Part shown: positions 1-5,947 of the stretch, in pieces
How the letters are laid out: each line of letters starts with the position of its first letter
How positions within the stretch are numbered: position 1 is the stretch's first letter
IMG/VR virus record: IMGVR_UViG_2913167280_000007
Coordinates: 1 to 5,947 of that record
Direction: 5' to 3' (one strand)
From: a virus
Lineage: Duplodnaviria > Heunggongvirae > Uroviricota > Caudoviricetes
Length of the DNA: 5,947 nt
Notes under the pieces: model-generated
What the model was told of the DNA's origin: nothing
What the model saw: only the letters and a program-made list of their open reading frames with translations
Databases searched by the model: none
Translations under genes and position numbers: made by a program

Positions 1-2073
1 CGGGCTTGGGGGCACTCCAGTGCAAGTCTCAGTAATTCGCGTCAGGTCGTTCAAGATGATACCGGGCTGTGGTGGTTTTACACCGGAGCATTTCCATTGT
101 TCGTAACTCCTGGAACAAATCCAGCTCTAGATCCTCTTTGGTATTGTGTAGGATTGCTAAATGGTAAGGAAGTAAATGATCTTTCTTCATGGTGCGATGT
201 GGTCTCCAACGTTGATGTAACCAGCCAGATTAGCAAGTATTTCAGAACCCTTTCTTACCTAAAATTTAACGCGATTTGTTACGGTGAAATTAAGATCTCA
301 TCTCAGGTAAGCACATTTGATGTTGCTTATGATATGAGCAAGTTAACCATCAACTTAGACCTTTCTGTTGTTGATACCACAATCACAAATAATGGATCTG
401 TTCTCCGAGTTACTGAACCAAATGAACAAGTTTTAACTGGGTTTAATGCTGGGTTAACTAGTATCAATCAGGATACGTCAAGCATTTTACTGCAATTTGG
501 GCAATGCACATTTTCCTATGTTGCTGAAGATAATGTGAATGACAGGGCTTATCTCAGATCAACTGGACAGGTAATCAGAAAAACAGATACACTGGTGCTT
601 ACTGCGACTGACAGAAGCATTTTCAGGAGCACACCTTCACTTTATGCATTGAATGGAACGGTTACCGCGAGCGTTAAACCATTAACTAATCGCATTACAT
701 GTTATCTGCCAAAAGTTGTATTAACAGGATCTTACCCTGGTACAGCACGCATAGAAAATATCGTTCAGTGTAGCAGGAATAATGTGAAATTTATTGGTGG
801 TGCATATGACCACCGCTCAACATCTATGGTAGCACACTCTTTTTTATCCATTTCGCAATGTGCATTCATAGAGATCGAATCCTTGCTGGCAAGTAATAAC
901 TTTGCAGAAAGCAGTCAGTACGCAATAAGCCTGTTTAGCACTGCATTTGTTCACATCCATAACTGTGCATTCCCTTACGGGTGGGCATTTGTTGATGGCA
1001 ATTTTATGCGCGACACAGTCATCGAGAAATGCACCATTGCTAATGCCTTTGGTGCTCATGCGATGGCCTGGAACATGACAGTACGAGATTGTAAGTTGCA
1101 GGGGGTAACCAGCAACGTTGACTTTACTACTATTGCTGGCGGCATCCATCTTACTGGAGGTGGGCAACTTCTTGTGGAAGACATCGAGTACTGGTACTCA
1201 GGTGGTGCAGCAGCAGCAGAATATCTAGTAGGGTGCAGACAGGATTACGGTCAGGGGTGGGAAGGGGATGTAACTGTAAGAAGAGTTAAAGTGTATGCCA
1301 ATGGGCTACCAAACCCTTTTATTCTGGTATATATGGCAGGTGGTTACCCGAATACTATGGATTATACGCGCCCGTATGCTTATCTCGGTAAGAAGATAAT
1401 TGTTCAAGACGTTACCATATACAAAGCTTTGATTGACCGCGCGCCAGCAAGCGTGATCATTGCACCTGTATGGTTCGCAAACCCTTCAAGTCCATCAATG
1501 CAATGGCGCCTTGCAGATGATGTTCTTATCGAGCGCATTAAAGCTGATGTTTCAGGATTTGGCGGCCTGAGGCTGAACCTTCAGATCCCAGGGGTGAAGA
1601 CAACTAATTACGTAGCTAAAACAGTGAATTTCACCGTTCGGGAATGTGATTTTACTACTGGTGGGATCACAATGAGCCTGGCCCAACCAGGCTCTGATGG
1701 GTCAAATATAACAAACCGGGTTCTTTTCGAAGATAATATTGGACCAGTATCAGGTACTCTCAGTGGAACTGTGAACGATAAATGGGAATTTAGGCGCTGC
1801 ACTATTGGAGCGCTTAACTCAGCAGGGAGCTTAAACGCCATAAAGGTATACCTAAAAAACTGCGATATCTCTGCTGCTTTGTGTGGAGGATCTAGCAGTG
1901 GTGAACAATGGTATTATTACGATAGCCATATCACTACGGCATCAACCGTTGATCTTGGCTCCCGTGCCGTTTACTGCCATGGTAATACCTGCCCTGTTGG
2001 AGGGGCTATCTCTGGGCGGACTCAGCCAGAGTGGTGGGAGTACAGAGATACGTCTATCTTTAGAACATCATAA
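1..2073 (+). CDS. Tailspike / tail-fibre protein, C-terminal receptor-binding portion (5'-truncated by the window edge; the listed ORF 97..2073 is the same frame, which is open from base 1)
   Basis: Frame 1 has no stop from base 1 to TAA at 2071-2073, so the gene starts upstream of the window. The product is rich in N/T/S/G/V with many short alternating hydrophobic repeats and scattered Cys, which is compatible with a parallel beta-helix fold (inference). It sits directly upstream of an O-antigen-modifying acyltransferase and a lysis cassette, as in epsilon15-like phages. Its stop is followed immediately by a strong terminator. No specific homologue was recognised by eye. Confidence 0.55.
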   Translation, partial: RAWGHSSASLSNSRQVVQDDTGLWWFYTGAFPLFVTPGTNPALDPLWYCVGLLNGKEVNDLSSWCDVVSNVDVTSQISKYFRTLSYLKFNAICYGEIKISSQVSTFDVAYDMSKLTINLDLSVVDTTITNNGSVLRVTEPNEQVLTGFNAGLTSINQDTSSILLQFGQCTFSYVAEDNVNDRAYLRSTGQVIRKTDTLVLTATDRSIFRSTPSLYALNGTVTASVKPLTNRITCYLPKVVLTGSYPGTARIENIVQCSRNNVKFIGGAYDHRSTSMVAHSFLSISQCAFIEIESLLASNNFAESSQYAISLFSTAFVHIHNCAFPYGWAFVDGNFMRDTVIEKCTIANAFGAHAMAWNMTVRDCKLQGVTSNVDFTTIAGGIHLTGGGQLLVEDIEYWYSGGAAAAEYLVGCRQDYGQGWEGDVTVRRVKVYANGLPNPFILVYMAGGYPNTMDYTRPYAYLGKKIIVQDVTIYKALIDRAPASVIIAPVWFANPSSPSMQWRLADDVLIERIKADVSGFGGLRLNLQIPGVKTTNYVAKTVNFTVRECDFTTGGITMSLAQPGSDGSNITNRVLFEDNIGPVSGTLSGTVNDKWEFRRCTIGALNSAGSLNAIKVYLKNCDISAALCGGSSSGEQWYYYDSHITTASTVDLGSRAVYCHGNTCPVGGAISGRTQPEWWEYRDTSIFRTS

Positions 2074-2103
2074 AAAAAATGGCCCGTTAAGGGCCATTTT
2101 TTT
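2074..2103. terminator. Bidirectional rho-independent terminator between the convergent tailspike and acyltransferase genes
   Basis: A-run 2074-2079, GC stem GGCCC (2081-2085), loop GTTAA, stem GGGCC (2091-2095), T-run 2097-2103. Read on either strand this gives a hairpin followed by a U-tract. It lies between two convergent stop codons. Confidence 0.75.
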
Positions 2104-3247
2104 AGATAGTTGTTGTATTCTTTTTTAGCAATGTTGCGCTTAGGTTTTTCCCAGTTTTTATGAATGGGGTTTCAACCATTTTGTATGTAATTATTGATGC
2201 TATTACAGTAACAAATAATATCATCGGGAATAAAGCATAGAATTCTGTTCTGGTAACGCCATAAAAATCATAAATATTAAAAACAGTAAATGCTGAGTAC
2301 AGTATAAATCCATGAGTAAGGTATATGCTGTAGCTTATGTCTCCTAAATAAACTAGGCCATTTTTGCGAAGAGCGCCAAAGATATCATTTCCAGATGAAA
2401 TTAAAATGAAAAGCATTCCAACAAGCAGCATTTGATATAAAGAGTAGCTAGGAGTCTGTGTAAATGCTATGGCGCATATAATAATTGCAAAAATAGAACA
2501 TGTATTACTTTTTAAGAAATTGATTTTTAGCTTAGTCACGTAATATGCAATCCCACCTATCGCAAATAAAATGAATAGCTCGTAGCGCACAGACGTTGCA
2601 TAAAGACATAAAATCAAAACAACAGCGGACAGTGCGCCGTATATTTTTGAGGAACCACCTTTTTTAATGATAAGGCTTAGTAGTGGGAGTGATATGTAAA
2701 ACAGAGCCTCATAGAATAAAGTCCACTGCACGCCGCTGATGCTTCTGCCAATGTTGTACCCATTAAGAGGCTGAAGGAAGAAAGCCATTCCGGCAGCTAA
2801 AGATTTAACAAGAGAAGATAGCGAGGTCTCCCCATCATATGTAACAAAGTAAACGCTGTATATTATTGCCAGCATGAGGATGTATAATGGATATATTCTG
2901 AATATCCTGCCAGCCGCTAACTCAGGCCACGATCTTACACCTTTAGATATTTTGCCTACAAAAAGGTACCCGGTAATCATGAAAAAAAGTGAAACAGGAA
3001 TTGATCCAAGATTTCCAACAAATAGACTATTTACTGCCCATGTTCCTTCAGCCTTCCAGTTGTACGTCAAGACGAAGTGATGAAGAAGCACCATTGGTGC
3101 CAATAGCCCTCTGAAACCATCAATAGTTATGTTTCTGTTATTGCTGGTATTTATTTCAGCAGAGTTAAAAACAAAGCTTGCAACGACAATGCAGATCGTA
3201 AAAATTGTGATTAATACCAAATTATCGAAGTACATCATTCTCGCCAT
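2102..3247 (-). CDS. Acyltransferase family 3 integral membrane protein, probable O-antigen / polysaccharide O-acetyltransferase (serotype-conversion moron)
   Basis: The 381-aa product is hydrophobic with multiple predicted TM segments. It carries the family signatures R-x-x-x-x-D-G-x-R-G...H-H ('RNITIDGFRGLLAPMVLLHH') and F-F-x-I-[ST]-G-[YF]-L ('FFMITGYLF'), as in OafA/Oac-type acyltransferases. GC is roughly 30%, far below the neighbouring lysis genes. It is on the opposite strand between the tailspike and the lysis cassette. The start codon is uncertain (ATG at 3245-3247 or the ATG ATG at 3233-3238) and no clear SD is present. Confidence 0.8.
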   Translation of the reverse strand: MARMMYFDNLVLITIFTICIVVASFVFNSAEINTSNNRNITIDGFRGLLAPMVLLHHFVLTYNWKAEGTWAVNSLFVGNLGSIPVSLFFMITGYLFVGKISKGVRSWPELAAGRIFRIYPLYILMLAIIYSVYFVTYDGETSLSSLVKSLAAGMAFFLQPLNGYNIGRSISGVQWTLFYEALFYISLPLLSLIIKKGGSSKIYGALSAVVLILCLYATSVRYELFILFAIGGIAYYVTKLKINFLKSNTCSIFAIIICAIAFTQTPSYSLYQMLLVGMLFILISSGNDIFGALRKNGLVYLGDISYSIYLTHGFILYSAFTVFNIYDFYGVTRTEFYALFPMILFVTVIASIITYKMVETPFIKTGKNLSATLLKKNTTTI

Positions 3248-3392
3248 TGTAAAAAGTAAATAAACATTTTATCACCCTTTAGGTAATTTCGATAGGAACA
3301 ATCCGAACGAAATCTATCCGTATAAGGATTATCATGTATCATAAACTCACAAACTAAGGGGGGTTCATTATGCATACTTTACGGTGGTCACT
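3248..3392. promoter_or_regulatory. Divergent intergenic region, expected to hold the acyltransferase promoter (leftward) and the lysis-cassette promoter / RBS (rightward)
   Basis: A 145-bp AT-rich non-coding gap between divergently oriented genes. It contains a strong SD-like AAGGGGGG (3354-3361) and -10-like hexamers (TATAAG 3321-3326; TGTATCAT 3335-3342), but no convincing -35/-10 pair at canonical spacing. The call rests on position only. Confidence 0.3.
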
Positions 3393-3797
3393 ATGTCTGC
3401 ATCCATGACGGTTTCAGACATCAATCATGGGCTTAGCTTGTGTGCTCTTGGTGCCTGGTTGGTTGGCGTTCCGTCTGAGGTGGTGATCGGTGGTCTGGCG
3501 GGTGCGGTAATTTTTGTTACCTTTGCGGCAGAGTATCCGATAAAGCGGCGCTTGCTCCTGGCTGTCATCAGCTTCTTCTGCGGCCTCCTCTTCTACAAAC
3601 CAACGGCAACCATTCTCATTGGCTTCGCAGCCATCCTCCCCGGCGTAACATCTGACATGTTCGAAAAAGGTGTTGTGTTCTCTGCCGGTGCTTTCGTCTC
3701 TTCAATCGTGGCTGTCAGGTTTGGCGTCTGGTTGTATCACCGTTCTGAAAATCCGCGCGACCTTATCCCGGGGAGAAAAGACGATGACCAGTCCTGA
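3393..3797 (+). CDS. Small multi-pass membrane protein, putative holin / holin-associated protein (first gene of the lysis cassette)
   Basis: ORF in frame with GTG 3384, ATG 3393 and ATG 3405. ATG 3393 has a GGTGG SD-like element 5 nt upstream. Product is about 134 aa with 3-4 hydrophobic helices and a charged C-terminal tail (RSENPRDLIPGRKDDDQS). Its stop TGA (3795-3797) overlaps the start of the next gene. Position immediately upstream of the endolysin supports a lysis role. Start codon is uncertain. Confidence 0.5.
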   Translation: MSASMTVSDINHGLSLCALGAWLVGVPSEVVIGGLAGAVIFVTFAAEYPIKRRLLLAVISFFCGLLFYKPTATILIGFAAILPGVTSDMFEKGVVFSAGAFVSSIVAVRFGVWLYHRSENPRDLIPGRKDDDQS

Positions 3798-4071
3798 ACT
3801 CATTCTTAACGCTGTTATCTGCGGCGCTATAGCCATTCGCGTTCTTCTGTTTCGTCGTGACGGGTCACGCCATCGCCGCTGGGGTGGATGGCTCGCATAC
3901 CTGCTAATTGTCTCCGCCGCCAGCGTCCCTATCCGCACATTCTATGGCTATTACATCAGCGCAGATTGGTCAGAGGTAATCATTAAAGCGGTGTTCCTTG
4001 CTGCGCTTATTAAAACCAAGGGGAATGTGGTTCAGATATTCAAATTAACGAGGTCTCAACATGGACATTAA
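3784..4071 (+). CDS. Small membrane protein, putative holin (95 aa)
   Basis: ATG 3784 is preceded by SD GGGAGA (3771-3776). Product MTSPELILNAVICGAIAIRVLLF...: two or three TM helices, a positively charged loop (RRDGSRHRRWGG) and a basic C-terminus. The 5' end overlaps the previous gene by 14 nt and the 3' end overlaps the endolysin start (ATGGACATTAA). The listed ORF start at 3670 is an upstream in-frame extension with no RBS. Confidence 0.55.
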   Translation: MTSPELILNAVICGAIAIRVLLFRRDGSRHRRWGGWLAYLLIVSAASVPIRTFYGYYISADWSEVIIKAVFLAALIKTKGNVVQIFKLTRSQHGH

Positions 4072-4687
4072 CCAGTTCCAGCGCGCTGCTGGTATCAGTA
4101 CTGAGCTGGCGACGCGCTGGCATCCACACATTACCGCCGCCATGCAGGAGTTTGGCATTACTAATCCTGACGATCAGGCGATGTTTATCGCGCAGACCGG
4201 GCATGAGAGTACAGGCTTTACGCGCCTGGTGGAGAGCTTCAACTACAGCGTTGCTGGTCTTGCTGACTTCATTCGCACCGGGCGCATTACTCAACAGCAG
4301 GCGAATGCGCTTGGCCGCCGCCAGGGTGAGCCGTCGCTTCCTCTGGAGTGCCAGCGTGCGATCGCCAATCTGGTGTACAGCAAGCGCATGGGAAACAAGG
4401 GCCCGACTGATGGATGGTTCTACCGTGGGCGTGGGCTTATTCAGATCACTGGCCTGAACAATTATCGCGCCTGCGGGAACGCTATCAAAGCCGATCTGGT
4501 GTCTCAGCCTGAACTGCTGGCACAGGATGCGTATGCCGCCCGCAGCGCTGCCTGGTTCTACTCTGTGAATGGCTGCCTGAAATATACCGGTGACCTGGTG
4601 CGAGTCACGCAGATTATCAACGGTGGCCAGAACGGAATTGATGACCGCCGGGCGCGCTATGCTGCTGCGAAAAAGGCGCTGGTATGA
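4061..4687 (+). CDS. Endolysin, glycoside hydrolase family 19 (chitinase-like lysozyme)
   Basis: 208 aa. SD ACGAGG (4048-4053) lies 7 nt before ATG 4061. Motifs 'DQAMFIAQTGHESTGF', 'GRGLIQITGLNNY' and 'VTQIINGGQNGIDDR' match the GH19 catalytic core as I recall it from epsilon15-like Salmonella phage endolysins. No N-terminal TM or signal-anchor, so it is a canonical holin-dependent soluble endolysin. The stop overlaps the Rz start (ATGA at 4684-4687). Confidence 0.9.
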   Translation: MDINQFQRAAGISTELATRWHPHITAAMQEFGITNPDDQAMFIAQTGHESTGFTRLVESFNYSVAGLADFIRTGRITQQQANALGRRQGEPSLPLECQRAIANLVYSKRMGNKGPTDGWFYRGRGLIQITGLNNYRACGNAIKADLVSQPELLAQDAYAARSAAWFYSVNGCLKYTGDLVRVTQIINGGQNGIDDRRARYAAAKKALV

Positions 4688-5184
4688 TTTTGGCATTCAT
4701 AAAAGCGTACTGGAGGCAGCTGATCATTGTTGTGTTGCTCTCTGCGCTGGTAGTCGGTGGCATCGTTGCATGGAAGGTTCACGGCAGCCAACAGTATGAT
4801 GCCGGATATGCACAGGCAAAGGCAGACCGTAAAGCCGAAGATGATAAAACTCGCCAGAAGGATGAGCAGGAGAAAGCGACCAATGAACGTGAAGCTCAGC
4901 AAAGGATCGACCAGGCGCGCAATGATGCTCTTGATGCTGCCGCTCGCGCTGGCAGGTTGCAGCAGCAGCTCATTGCCATCGACAAGCAGCTCAGGCAGTA
5001 TAACGCCACTGTCGGCGCTGGGCCGTCAGCCGCAGACACCGGAATTTTGCTTGCCGACGTGCTCCGCCAATCTCTCGAAAGAAACCGAGTCCTGGCAGAA
5101 TACGCTGACCGGGCAGCCGAAGCCGGGCGGGTCTGCGAACGTCAGTACGACACCCTGACGAAACAGGTCACAGTTTCCCGGTGA
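4684..5184 (+). CDS. Rz: Rz-like i-spanin (inner-membrane spanin subunit)
   Basis: 166 aa. N-terminal TM helix (LIIVVLLSALVVGGIVAW), then a charged periplasmic domain predicted to be coiled coil (rich in A/E/K/R/Q) with a single Cys near the C-terminus. Translationally coupled to the endolysin, and it contains the embedded +1-frame Rz1 gene. Confidence 0.85.
   Translation: MILAFIKAYWRQLIIVVLLSALVVGGIVAWKVHGSQQYDAGYAQAKADRKAEDDKTRQKDEQEKATNEREAQQRIDQARNDALDAAARAGRLQQQLIAIDKQLRQYNATVGAGPSAADTGILLADVLRQSLERNRVLAEYADRAAEAGRVCERQYDTLTKQVTVSR
4922..5158 (+). CDS. Rz1: Rz1-like o-spanin (outer-membrane lipoprotein), embedded in the +1 frame of Rz
   Basis: ATG ATG at 4922-4927 begins MMLLMLPLALAG|C: a short signal peptide with lipobox L-A-G-C. 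The mature part is Ser/Pro/Thr-rich with further Cys (EFCLPTC), as is typical of Rz1. It lies entirely inside Rz. The listed ORF 4757..5158 is the same frame with a non-coding upstream extension. Confidence 0.8.
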   Translation: MMLLMLPLALAGCSSSSLPSTSSSGSITPLSALGRQPQTPEFCLPTCSANLSKETESWQNTLTGQPKPGGSANVSTTP

Positions 5185-5300
5185 CGGTATATAAAACGGT
5201 ACGCCAAAAAACGGATTTAATAAAGTTGTTACCATTCAATTGGTTATGCTTACCGTAAATAATTGAGTGGAATGATTTAATTCCTGCACTATGAATGAAC

Positions 5301-5330
5301 AAAACCCTCTGTTGCTACAGAGGGTTTTTT
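5301..5330 (+). terminator. Rho-independent terminator ending the lysis operon
   Basis: AAAA (5301-5304), stem CCCTCTG (5305-5311), loop TTGCTA, stem CAGAGGG (5318-5324), T-run 5325-5330. It lies about 120 nt downstream of the Rz stop. Confidence 0.7.
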
Positions 5331-5407
5331 ATATTGCTGACTAAAGTTAGCAATATAAAAAAGCCTGTAATCCTCACGAATCATAGGCTTGAAGTTACTG
5401 ACAGCGA

Positions 5408-5947
5408 TTAATTAAACCAACTGTCCGATTTATTCTCTTCTGCTTTACCCACGCTTTTCATCAAATCGCGACCACCTTCTGTCACATTCCTGTTAGCGTC
5501 AGCTTCAGATTGCACGACATCAGTTTGCGCGGCTTTGTGCTTCAGCTCCTGATCGATAAATTCGTTCTCGCGCTTAACGCGGGCTTCTTCTTTCGCCAGC
5601 GCCAGTTTTTGTTTCTGAATCTCTAAGCTGCGCAGCTCATCTTCATAACTTTGATCGCGTTTTTTATCCGCAGTGGCTTCGGCGTCCAGTTTATCCTGGC
5701 GAGCTTTCTTATCCGCTGCTGCTGCCGCCGCTCTTTTATTGGCGGCGGCCTGAGCGTTTGCGCGACGCTGTTTCTCTTGTTGAATTTCCCTGTTGCGCTC
5801 CGCGACCCATTCGTCATGCTGCCTTTGCTCTTCATTTTTACCTTGCTGTTCCGCTTCTGCGACAGCCGAGAGTTGATCCTGCAATGATGAGGCGGCAGCC
5901 GGATAGCTTAAGGAGGCTAAGATGGCGCAAAGAAAAACTTTCTTCAT
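5408..5947 (-). CDS. Secreted (Sec signal peptide) highly charged coiled-coil protein of unknown function; candidate moron at the lambda bor position
   Basis: 179 aa. N-terminal MKKVFLCAILASLSYPAAASS looks like a signal peptide with an A-x-A type cleavage site. The remainder is E/K/R/Q/A-rich, predicted helical or coiled coil, and includes a poly-Ala tract (RAAAAAADKK). The start ATG is at the very window edge (5945-5947). It converges on the lysis operon. No family was recognised. Confidence 0.6.
   Translation of the reverse strand: MKKVFLCAILASLSYPAAASSLQDQLSAVAEAEQQGKNEEQRQHDEWVAERNREIQQEKQRRANAQAAANKRAAAAAADKKARQDKLDAEATADKKRDQSYEDELRSLEIQKQKLALAKEEARVKRENEFIDQELKHKAAQTDVVQSEADANRNVTEGGRDLMKSVGKAEENKSDSWFN

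Follow-up and report, generated by a model that had tools for sequence, protein, structure and literature searches.

The stretch of DNA analysed here (the window) comprises 5,947 nt of the Caudoviricetes record IMGVR_UViG_2913167280_000007. Its subject of interest is an acyltransferase-3 (AT3) gene that lies antisense between a tailspike gene and the lysis genes; with the hairpin at its 3′ end and the gap upstream of it, the gene occupies positions 2074–3392 (Table 1). Its gene order and genome matches place the window at the right end of an epsilon15/phiV10-like (Uetakevirus) prophage at guaA/yfgI, where it runs on into host DNA. A sequence-only reading had taken the gene for a terminator-insulated, very AT-rich insertion beside the tailspike gene, probably an O-antigen acetylation (seroconversion) moron. 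Its statement that the gene opposes all neighbouring phage genes is borne out, as the only other minus-strand gene belongs to the host.

Table 1. Features of the window
Feature	Coordinates	Strand	Remarks
Tailspike gene, 3′ part	1–2073	+	Frame open from base 1; cut at the left edge of the window; 690 aa receptor-binding domain
Shared mobile block (putative): tailspike receptor-binding domain, terminator, AT3 gene minus its first ~39 codons	70–3129		blastn
Predicted bidirectional intrinsic terminator	2074–2101		Fills the entire gap between the two convergent stop codons (28 nt)
AT3-only acyltransferase gene	2102–3247	−	381 aa; convergent with the tailspike gene
Candidate sigma-70 promoter for the AT3 gene	3246–3275	−	GTGATA, 18-nt spacer, TACAAT; 9/12 consensus matches
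Intergenic regulatory region of the phage backbone	3249–3392		Aligns with BUCT554, SPNIS2, phiV10 and epsilon15
Holin-like membrane protein	3393–3797	+	Lysis cassette; Pfam matches; synteny with phiV10 and epsilon15
Holin	3784–4071	+	Lysis cassette; Pfam; phiV10/epsilon15 synteny
GH19 endolysin	4061–4687	+	Lysis cassette; Pfam; phiV10/epsilon15 synteny
Rz-like spanin with embedded lipoprotein frame	4684–5184	+	Lysis cassette; Pfam; phiV10/epsilon15 synteny
Host chromosome: guaA 3′ end/attR, host terminator (5301–5328), yfgI	5262–5947		E. coli genome matches
yfgI (DUF5384), host gene	5408–5947	−	Pfam and E. coli genome matches

The AT3 open reading frame (ORF) has other possible starts at 3238 and 3235, and the National Center for Biotechnology Information (NCBI) also lists a 378-aa form of the protein that begins at 3238. 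By its profile matches the product is an intact member of the AT3 family, as had been proposed: it matches Pfam Acyl_transf_3 (PF01757) over profile positions 3–325 of 326 (E 3.3e-31; score 109 bits, gathering cut-off 31) and PHROG 3333 ‘O-acetyltransferase’ (E 8e-55). The two motif stretches on which the proposal was built, R...DGxRG...HH and FFxI[ST]GYL, are both present, as R38...D43-G-F-R46-G...H56-H57 and F88-F89-M-I-T-G-Y-L95. Two motifs, R-X10-H and RXXR, are held to define AT3 domains (PMC9833829). The first corresponds to R46/H57, in the first core transmembrane helix, and the second to R114-I-F-R117, at the cytoplasmic face of core helix 3; R46/H57 and both arginines of the second motif are invariant across 117 aligned homologues. 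Alanine mutagenesis of the Sf101 protein OacB identified seven essential residues, R47, H58, W71, F98, R116, R119 and S146 (PMC8952252), and all seven are kept in the window protein, as R46, H57, W70, F96, R114, R117 and S142.

An AlphaFold2 (AF2) model built from the 117-homologue alignment predicts, with confidence, an all-helical membrane protein (predicted local distance difference test score 95; predicted template modelling score 0.93). Its 11 long helices comprise one N-terminal helix and a core of about ten, in agreement with the 11-helix topology predicted for OacB. The model has no SGNH domain, and AT3 alone, without a fused SGNH partner, is the single Pfam domain in the 381 aa. To our knowledge, no AT3 structure has been solved. 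A Foldseek search of the PDB gave only weak matches to HGSNAT, none of them significant (probability 0.77; template modelling score 0.31), which fit a published proposal of a common fold for HGSNAT and AT3 proteins (PMC12423673). Foldseek against BFVD returned one match, a 637-aa unnamed viral protein. Sequence searches of the PDB with the AT3 protein and with the tailspike found no match, and no NCBIfam model matches either protein.

The GC content of the AT3 gene is 36.4%, as against 44.1% in the tailspike part and 49–58% in the lysis genes. It is therefore the lowest among the genes, as the sequence-only reading had it, but not in the whole window, where two intergenic regions, at 32 and 35%, are as low or lower. 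Compared with its sister copies in other prophages, the gene has a ratio of non-synonymous to synonymous substitution rates (dN/dS) of 0.08–0.14, and is by this measure under purifying selection. That it is a silent or decaying passenger, now without function, is scarcely credible: the gene is rare in databases and its promoter is only a weak match, as such a passenger might be expected to show, but the ORF is intact, the catalytic and conserved residues are all kept, the terminator is conserved and the dN/dS is low despite near-saturated synonymous sites.

The gap between the two convergent genes is filled by a perfect hairpin, the arms of which (2073–2085 and 2091–2103) are 13 nt each and 100% complementary around a 5-nt loop. 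Its layout is A7-TGGCCC, loop GTTAA, GGGCCA-T7, and its folding energy (dG) is −21.1 kcal/mol on the plus strand and −19.6 kcal/mol on the minus strand (z −5.9 and −6.1 against shuffles). Because an A-run lies on one flank and a T-run on the other, the hairpin is predicted to be terminator-like in both directions, in line with the bidirectional terminator first proposed at this place. A consensus terminator scanner did not list the hairpin at 2074–2101, probably because pairing between the A and T runs lengthens the stem. The GGCCC-TTAAC-GGGCC core is identical in the sister copies of P22-like prophages. There is no terminator on the 5′ side of the AT3 gene, so the gene is terminator-insulated at its 3′ end only.

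Comparison with other prophages points to an acquired unit larger than the gene. The block from 70 to 3129 aligns with P22-like prophages of E. coli (L010–L013) in a single blastn alignment of 3061–3063 columns at 77% identity, outside which nothing is similar between the window and these prophages. At the protein level, the tailspikes of these prophages are 84% and their AT3 proteins 77% identical to those of the window. Synonymous divergence from L010 is similar for the two genes of the pair (1.7 and 2.2), which fits their joint inheritance, although both values are near saturation. The pair recurs in a baseplate-bearing (myovirus-type) prophage under the NCBI name Hafnia paralvei (L014, L015 and L018; tailspike 72%, AT3 55%). 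It is broken in a further set of P22-like prophages, at argW/yfdC (L003–L006), which have the order int-AT3-tailspike, as in Sf6, and in which the AT3 protein is 78% but the tailspike only 45% identical. In L003–L006, DNA homology is limited to the last ~120 nt of the tailspike gene, the hairpin and the AT3 gene, which indicates a breakpoint within the tailspike 3′ end.

On this evidence the AT3 gene is not a solitary insertion; what was acquired is a block of 3.06 kb, tailspike receptor-binding domain included. To call the gene ‘inserted’ is accordingly misleading, and the term moron suits it in part: it has its own terminator and a deviant GC content (36% against 49–58%), but it does not stand as a lone insertion, since the block takes in a tailspike domain at 44% GC. 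The right-hand recombination junction of the block is placed by these alignments somewhere in 3130–3248. The DNA of that interval, which encodes the first ~39 AT3 codons and the extra N-terminal helix, matches neither the P22-like sisters nor the Uetakevirus backbone.

The linkage was surveyed among relatives at least 50% identical to the AT3 protein whose gene context was readable. In these the AT3 gene is always convergent with, and directly after, another gene, and that gene encodes a homologous tailspike in all except L017 (51% identity), a truncated contig where the neighbouring convergent gene is unrelated to the window tailspike. Because L017 and a 44%-identical relative in Pseudescherichia are without a homologous tailspike, the linkage appears to hold for the close AT3 clade only. 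Within that clade, the pair is carried in a cryptic Escherichia by an epsilon15-like podovirus, in E. coli by P22-like podoviruses and in Hafnia paralvei by a prophage with a contractile tail. Strains with sister modules include the E. coli sources of QMN21159.1 and EFF9872385.1 and the Hafnia paralvei source of WP_130961767.1. It is, in our view, as likely as not that the receptor-binding domain, the terminator and the AT3 gene make up a self-contained ‘recognise-and-mask’ cassette for specificity, exchanged whole across tail architectures and host genera. Adjacency of acetylase and tailspike genes has already been described (PMC3303846).

The presence in L003–L006 of one AT3 type (78%) beside rather different tailspikes (45%) lends some weight to another view of the benefit, namely that the O-antigen is acetylated and the phage’s own tailspike tolerates the modification, the gain being protection from other phages or, for the bacterial host, escape from immunity or serum. 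O-antigen acetylation generally alters antigenicity and phage interactions (PMC9558356), and the case of Kapi1 indicates that a prophage that modifies the O-antigen can influence how well its host competes (PMC8787464). We nevertheless consider this view unlikely. Acetylation by Sf6 Oac and by phiV10 Oac, the two analogous systems with data, blocks the phage’s own infection (PMC11854483, PMC9558356), and the tight linkage to the receptor-binding domain is explained most simply by matched specificity. Kapi1 was also considered as a related case and rejected, as its modifier is not an AT3 of this kind.

The tailspike belongs to a wider family in which a modifier gene is a regular neighbour. It has a weak match to Pfam Beta_helix, and its best matches among deposited phages are Ackermannviridae tailspikes at ~31% identity. 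The receptor-binding domain is rare, with 12 clusters, and is joined to three kinds of N terminus: P22 head-binding, Tail_spike_N and neither of these. In all four of the more distant members compared (31–57% identity; L102, L103/L104, L105 and L106/L107), a convergent O-antigen modifier comes next. An AT3-SGNH gene follows the tailspike in three loci, in siphovirus-like and podovirus-like Enterobacter prophages (the siphovirus-like tails carrying a tape-measure gene and an NlpC/P60 gene), and gtrABC follows it in an Erwinia P22-like prophage. A GC-rich hairpin lies in almost all of the convergent tailspike/modifier gaps compared. Taken together, the modifiers beside distant members and the hairpins in these gaps argue that a tailspike gene followed by a convergent O-antigen modifier with a shared terminator is a general arrangement.

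The position between the tailspike and lysis genes is also a cargo slot in related phages. In phiV10 it holds oac, antisense and annotated ‘acetylates the host O-antigen; functions in superinfection immunity’; this gene has been experimentally characterized (PMC9558356, PMC11854483). The cargo is likewise antisense in epsilon15 (an O-antigen polymerase-like gp21 and a polymerase inhibitor, gp22), in Enterobacter phage BUCT554 (gtrABC), in an E. coli prophage at the same guaA/yfgI site (gtrABC), in another E. coli prophage at that site (an unannotated 372-aa gene and a 79-aa gene) and in SPNIS2 (acyltransferase fragments). In TL-2011b an O-acetyltransferase occupies the slot on the plus strand, the same strand as the tailspike. 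Position, antisense orientation and a conserved regulatory region are thus common to the window and the seroconversion slot of epsilon15 (gp21/gp22), BUCT554 and the E. coli prophage with gtrABC, whereas the chemistry differs: polymerase plus inhibitor or glucosylation in those relatives, and putative acylation here. Since the same slot holds other O-antigen modifiers in relatives, a seroconversion role for the window AT3 gene is supported, and the conserved OacB residues add to the case for the O-antigen modification first suggested.

Kinship at the protein level is narrower than kinship of position. Proteins 100% identical to the window AT3 (RZN40112.1, TLI81244.1 and WP_165383338.1; Escherichia sp. 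E2593 and E10V5) carry just the NCBI label ‘acyltransferase’. Close relatives are rare, forming a handful of clusters among 5.8 billion proteins, and the DNA of the gene is unmatched in 5,426 complete E. coli genomes in both near and distant search modes. Among species-representative genomes, a single-protein scan found no relative; a profile scan found genes at best ≤44% identical, mostly chromosomal in Pseudomonas, Acinetobacter and Moraxella. A tblastn search (E 1e-5) of 50,697 phage records returned five records from three phages: Sf101 (OacB), a Pseudomonas phage and ESSI2_ev239. No phiV10 or Sf6 record was among these five, and the window AT3 appears to be of a lineage distinct from phiV10 Oac and Sf6 Oac.

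The closest characterized relative is Sf101 OacB. OacB is an AT3-only O-antigen O-acetyltransferase responsible for 3/4-O-acetylation of RhaIII and 6-O-acetylation of GlcNAc. Like the window protein, it is AT3-only with an extra N-terminal helix, and its gene is convergent with, and directly after, the tailspike gene. However, only 34% of residues are identical, across 98% of the length, which is too little for orthology; the host O-antigens also differ. The setting differs too, for Sf101 is P22-like with oacB between int and the tailspike gene, whereas the window is epsilon15-like with the AT3 gene between the tailspike and lysis genes.

The comparison with Oac-type proteins that the sequence-only reading invoked therefore holds for genomic logic but not for protein descent. 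The phiV10 oac gene shares the identical slot, the antisense orientation, the phage genus, the Pfam family and the proposed role. Yet its product has 338 aa and no extra N-terminal helix, and shows essentially no similarity to the window protein beyond the family motif (pairwise BLASTP E 0.004 over 84 aa); moreover, the phiV10 gap between oac and the tailspike gene is 12 nt without a hairpin, where the window has its 28-nt hairpin. The Sf6 order int-oac-tailspike is held by the 77–78% identical sister copies of the window gene in E. coli P22-like prophages, although Sf6 Oac itself belongs to a different AT3 lineage. The Salmonella AT3-SGNH proteins OafA and OafB (GtrC family II) have the same AT3 domain, with R-X10-H and RXXR (PMC9833829), but also carry the SGNH domain that is absent here; it is genes of this type that follow the more distant members of the window tailspike family.

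We propose, with a probability of roughly 75%, that the gene encodes an inner-membrane AT3-only O-acyltransferase that acetylates the O-antigen of the lysogen and masks the receptor from the neighbouring tailspike. In this model, a promoter within the intergenic region conserved in the backbone would drive leftward transcription of the gene in the lysogen, opposite to the late genes. Transcription would stop at the bidirectional hairpin, which would also end that of the tailspike gene. In AT3 proteins, acetyl-CoA enters a pore from the cytoplasm and is held by conserved arginines, and transfer takes place near the catalytic histidine on the periplasmic side; in AT3-only enzymes the domain is thought to finish the transfer alone (PMC9833829, PMC9558356). 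Cytoplasmic acetyl-CoA would here be held in the central pore of the 11-helix protein by R46, R114 and R117, and the acetyl group passed via H57, near the periplasmic face, to a sugar hydroxyl of the O-antigen repeat unit. With no SGNH domain present, the AT3 domain must hand the group to the acceptor alone or with a partner. The acetylated O-antigen would be a poorer substrate or ligand for the adjacent beta-helix tailspike, and the lysogen would change serotype and resist superinfection by its own phage and by others of the same receptor specificity. Inheritance of the AT3 gene and the receptor-binding domain as one block could keep recognition and masking matched between phage lineages. We infer the donor, the acceptor, expression in the lysogen and the exclusion phenotype, as the components of the proposed function, and take the hindrance of the tailspike and the block to superinfection from the analogy with Sf6 and phiV10.

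Several observations weigh against this proposal. The closest characterized AT3 relative, OacB, is only 34% identical, too distant to serve as a guide to the sugar, the position or even the class of acceptor. Homologues at 35–44% identity are chromosomal rather than phage-linked, and many of the Pseudomonas copies are labelled generically ‘peptidoglycan/LPS O-acetylase’. In Pseudescherichia, a 44%-identical AT3-only homologue (L019, 3238–4395) stands by itself, flanked by lepA and rseC, without phage genes in its neighbourhood; it is possibly a chromosomal relative, or the source, of the phage-borne clade. The candidate promoter is a weak consensus match only, such sites being no commoner in the window than in shuffles, and expression of the gene in the lysogen is assumed.

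These points bear on the nature of the acceptor. AT3 proteins of other bacteria modify enterobacterial common antigen, lipopolysaccharide (LPS) core, capsule and osmoregulated periplasmic glucans, and one of these surface or periplasmic glycans might be acylated in place of the O-antigen. The functional breadth of the AT3 family (PMC9558356), the chromosomal location and generic annotation of the distant homologues and the lack of a match to any curated NCBIfam equivalog would all be compatible with such an acceptor. We think it distinctly unlikely, because the slot is given to O-antigen modifiers in every relative examined, the AT3 gene is co-inherited with the tailspike receptor-binding domain, and the critical residues of the nearest characterized protein, an O-antigen acetyltransferase, are all kept. 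Of these glycans, capsule may still be the acceptor. As to the group transferred, some AT3 proteins take other acyl-CoA donors, and a succinyl or propionyl group, for example, might be moved instead of acetyl. The wording of a review, ‘acylation, most commonly acetylation’, leaves room for this (PMC9558356), but all of the characterized phage-borne O-antigen AT3 enzymes are acetyltransferases (PMC9558356), and we hold a donor other than acetyl-CoA to be very unlikely. O-antigen acetylation, with masking of the receptor from the phage’s own tailspike, is thus the reading that we prefer.

When a phage enzyme acetylates the O-antigen, serotype, vaccine epitopes and susceptibility to phages all change. 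The phage strategy and the genomic slot seen here are both well known, and in this respect the find is real but ordinary: current understanding is not overturned, and specialists are unlikely to be surprised by the block, though follow-up is worthwhile. What goes beyond the textbook case is a 3-kb recognise-and-mask block that phages of three architectures, in hosts of two or more genera, appear to share. The gene adds an AT3-only lineage, but the value lies in the arrangement more than in the enzyme. If the cassette interpretation is right, a phage that gains a new receptor specificity automatically gains the matching masking enzyme, and the tailspike/AT3 pairs at 84/77% and 72/55%, together with the broken pair at 45/78%, make up a natural series for the co-evolution of glycan-cleaving and glycan-modifying proteins. 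The pairing of tailspike domain and AT3 gene in three architectures would offer a compact, testable system for asking how recognition and masking stay matched. It also bears on an open question of the field, namely how transfer is completed by an AT3-only protein that lacks an SGNH partner (PMC9558356).

Upstream of the AT3 gene, the 144 nt that separate the start codon of the cargo from the first gene of the lysis cassette align across Uetakevirus relatives with differing cargo. Since this region (3249–3392) is alignable regardless of the cargo, it belongs to the phage backbone, with the swap boundary at the cargo start codon. The candidate promoter sits inside this backbone-owned region and, read from 3275 to 3246, would give a near-leaderless mRNA beginning at about the ATG at 3238. 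Phase variation of the Dam/OxyR type, as in gtr and oafB operons, was considered and rejected, as there is no GATC within 3198–3484 and hence none in the intergenic region. An upstream 46-aa ORF (3235–3375, minus strand) was examined as an analogue of epsilon15 gp22; coding is very unlikely, because related phages differ there by single-base indels.

A long hairpin at 3330–3409, in the same region, is conserved in five Uetakeviruses, at a place where the epsilon15 annotation has an RNase III target. In this hairpin, a strong Shine-Dalgarno-like sequence, AAGGGGGG (3357–3364), and an ATG at 3371 are paired with upstream sequence; this ATG opens a 12-codon frame, MHTLRWSLCLHP, that overlaps the start of the holin-like gene at 3393. 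The hairpin is weaker in the window (z −1.5), and the sequences are too alike to show more than a trace of covariation.

To the right of this region, the DNA of the lysis cassette is 73–77% identical to that of epsilon15, phiV10, SPN1S, BUCT554 and other Uetakevirus phages. The spanin gene embeds a +1 frame (4757–5158, plus strand) with a lipoprotein-type signal, LPLALAGCSSSS, which corresponds to the Rz1-like o-spanin annotated inside the phiV10 and epsilon15 spanin genes.

Prophage-free E. coli genomes begin to match the window at ~5262, the guaA 3′ end with the att core region, with 90–95% identity. As the match starts only there, the prophage ends ~80 nt past the spanin gene. Of 5426 complete E. 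coli genomes, 5419 match the yfgI gene at 90–95% identity; this DUF5384 gene was considered as a second antisense moron and ruled out as such on its identification as host yfgI. That its identity is below what is usual within E. coli, and that the protein identical to the window AT3 carries the NCBI name ‘unclassified Escherichia’, suggests a host among Escherichia other than typical E. coli. A similar overrun into the chromosome is apparent in a deposited phage genome, that of TL-2011b (L099, NC_019445, 7426–9171), in which gp54 (DUF5384) and gp56 (DUF2633) are placed where E. coli chromosomes have yfgI and yfgG, and gp55, annotated as a DNA methyltransferase, occupies the yfgH position.

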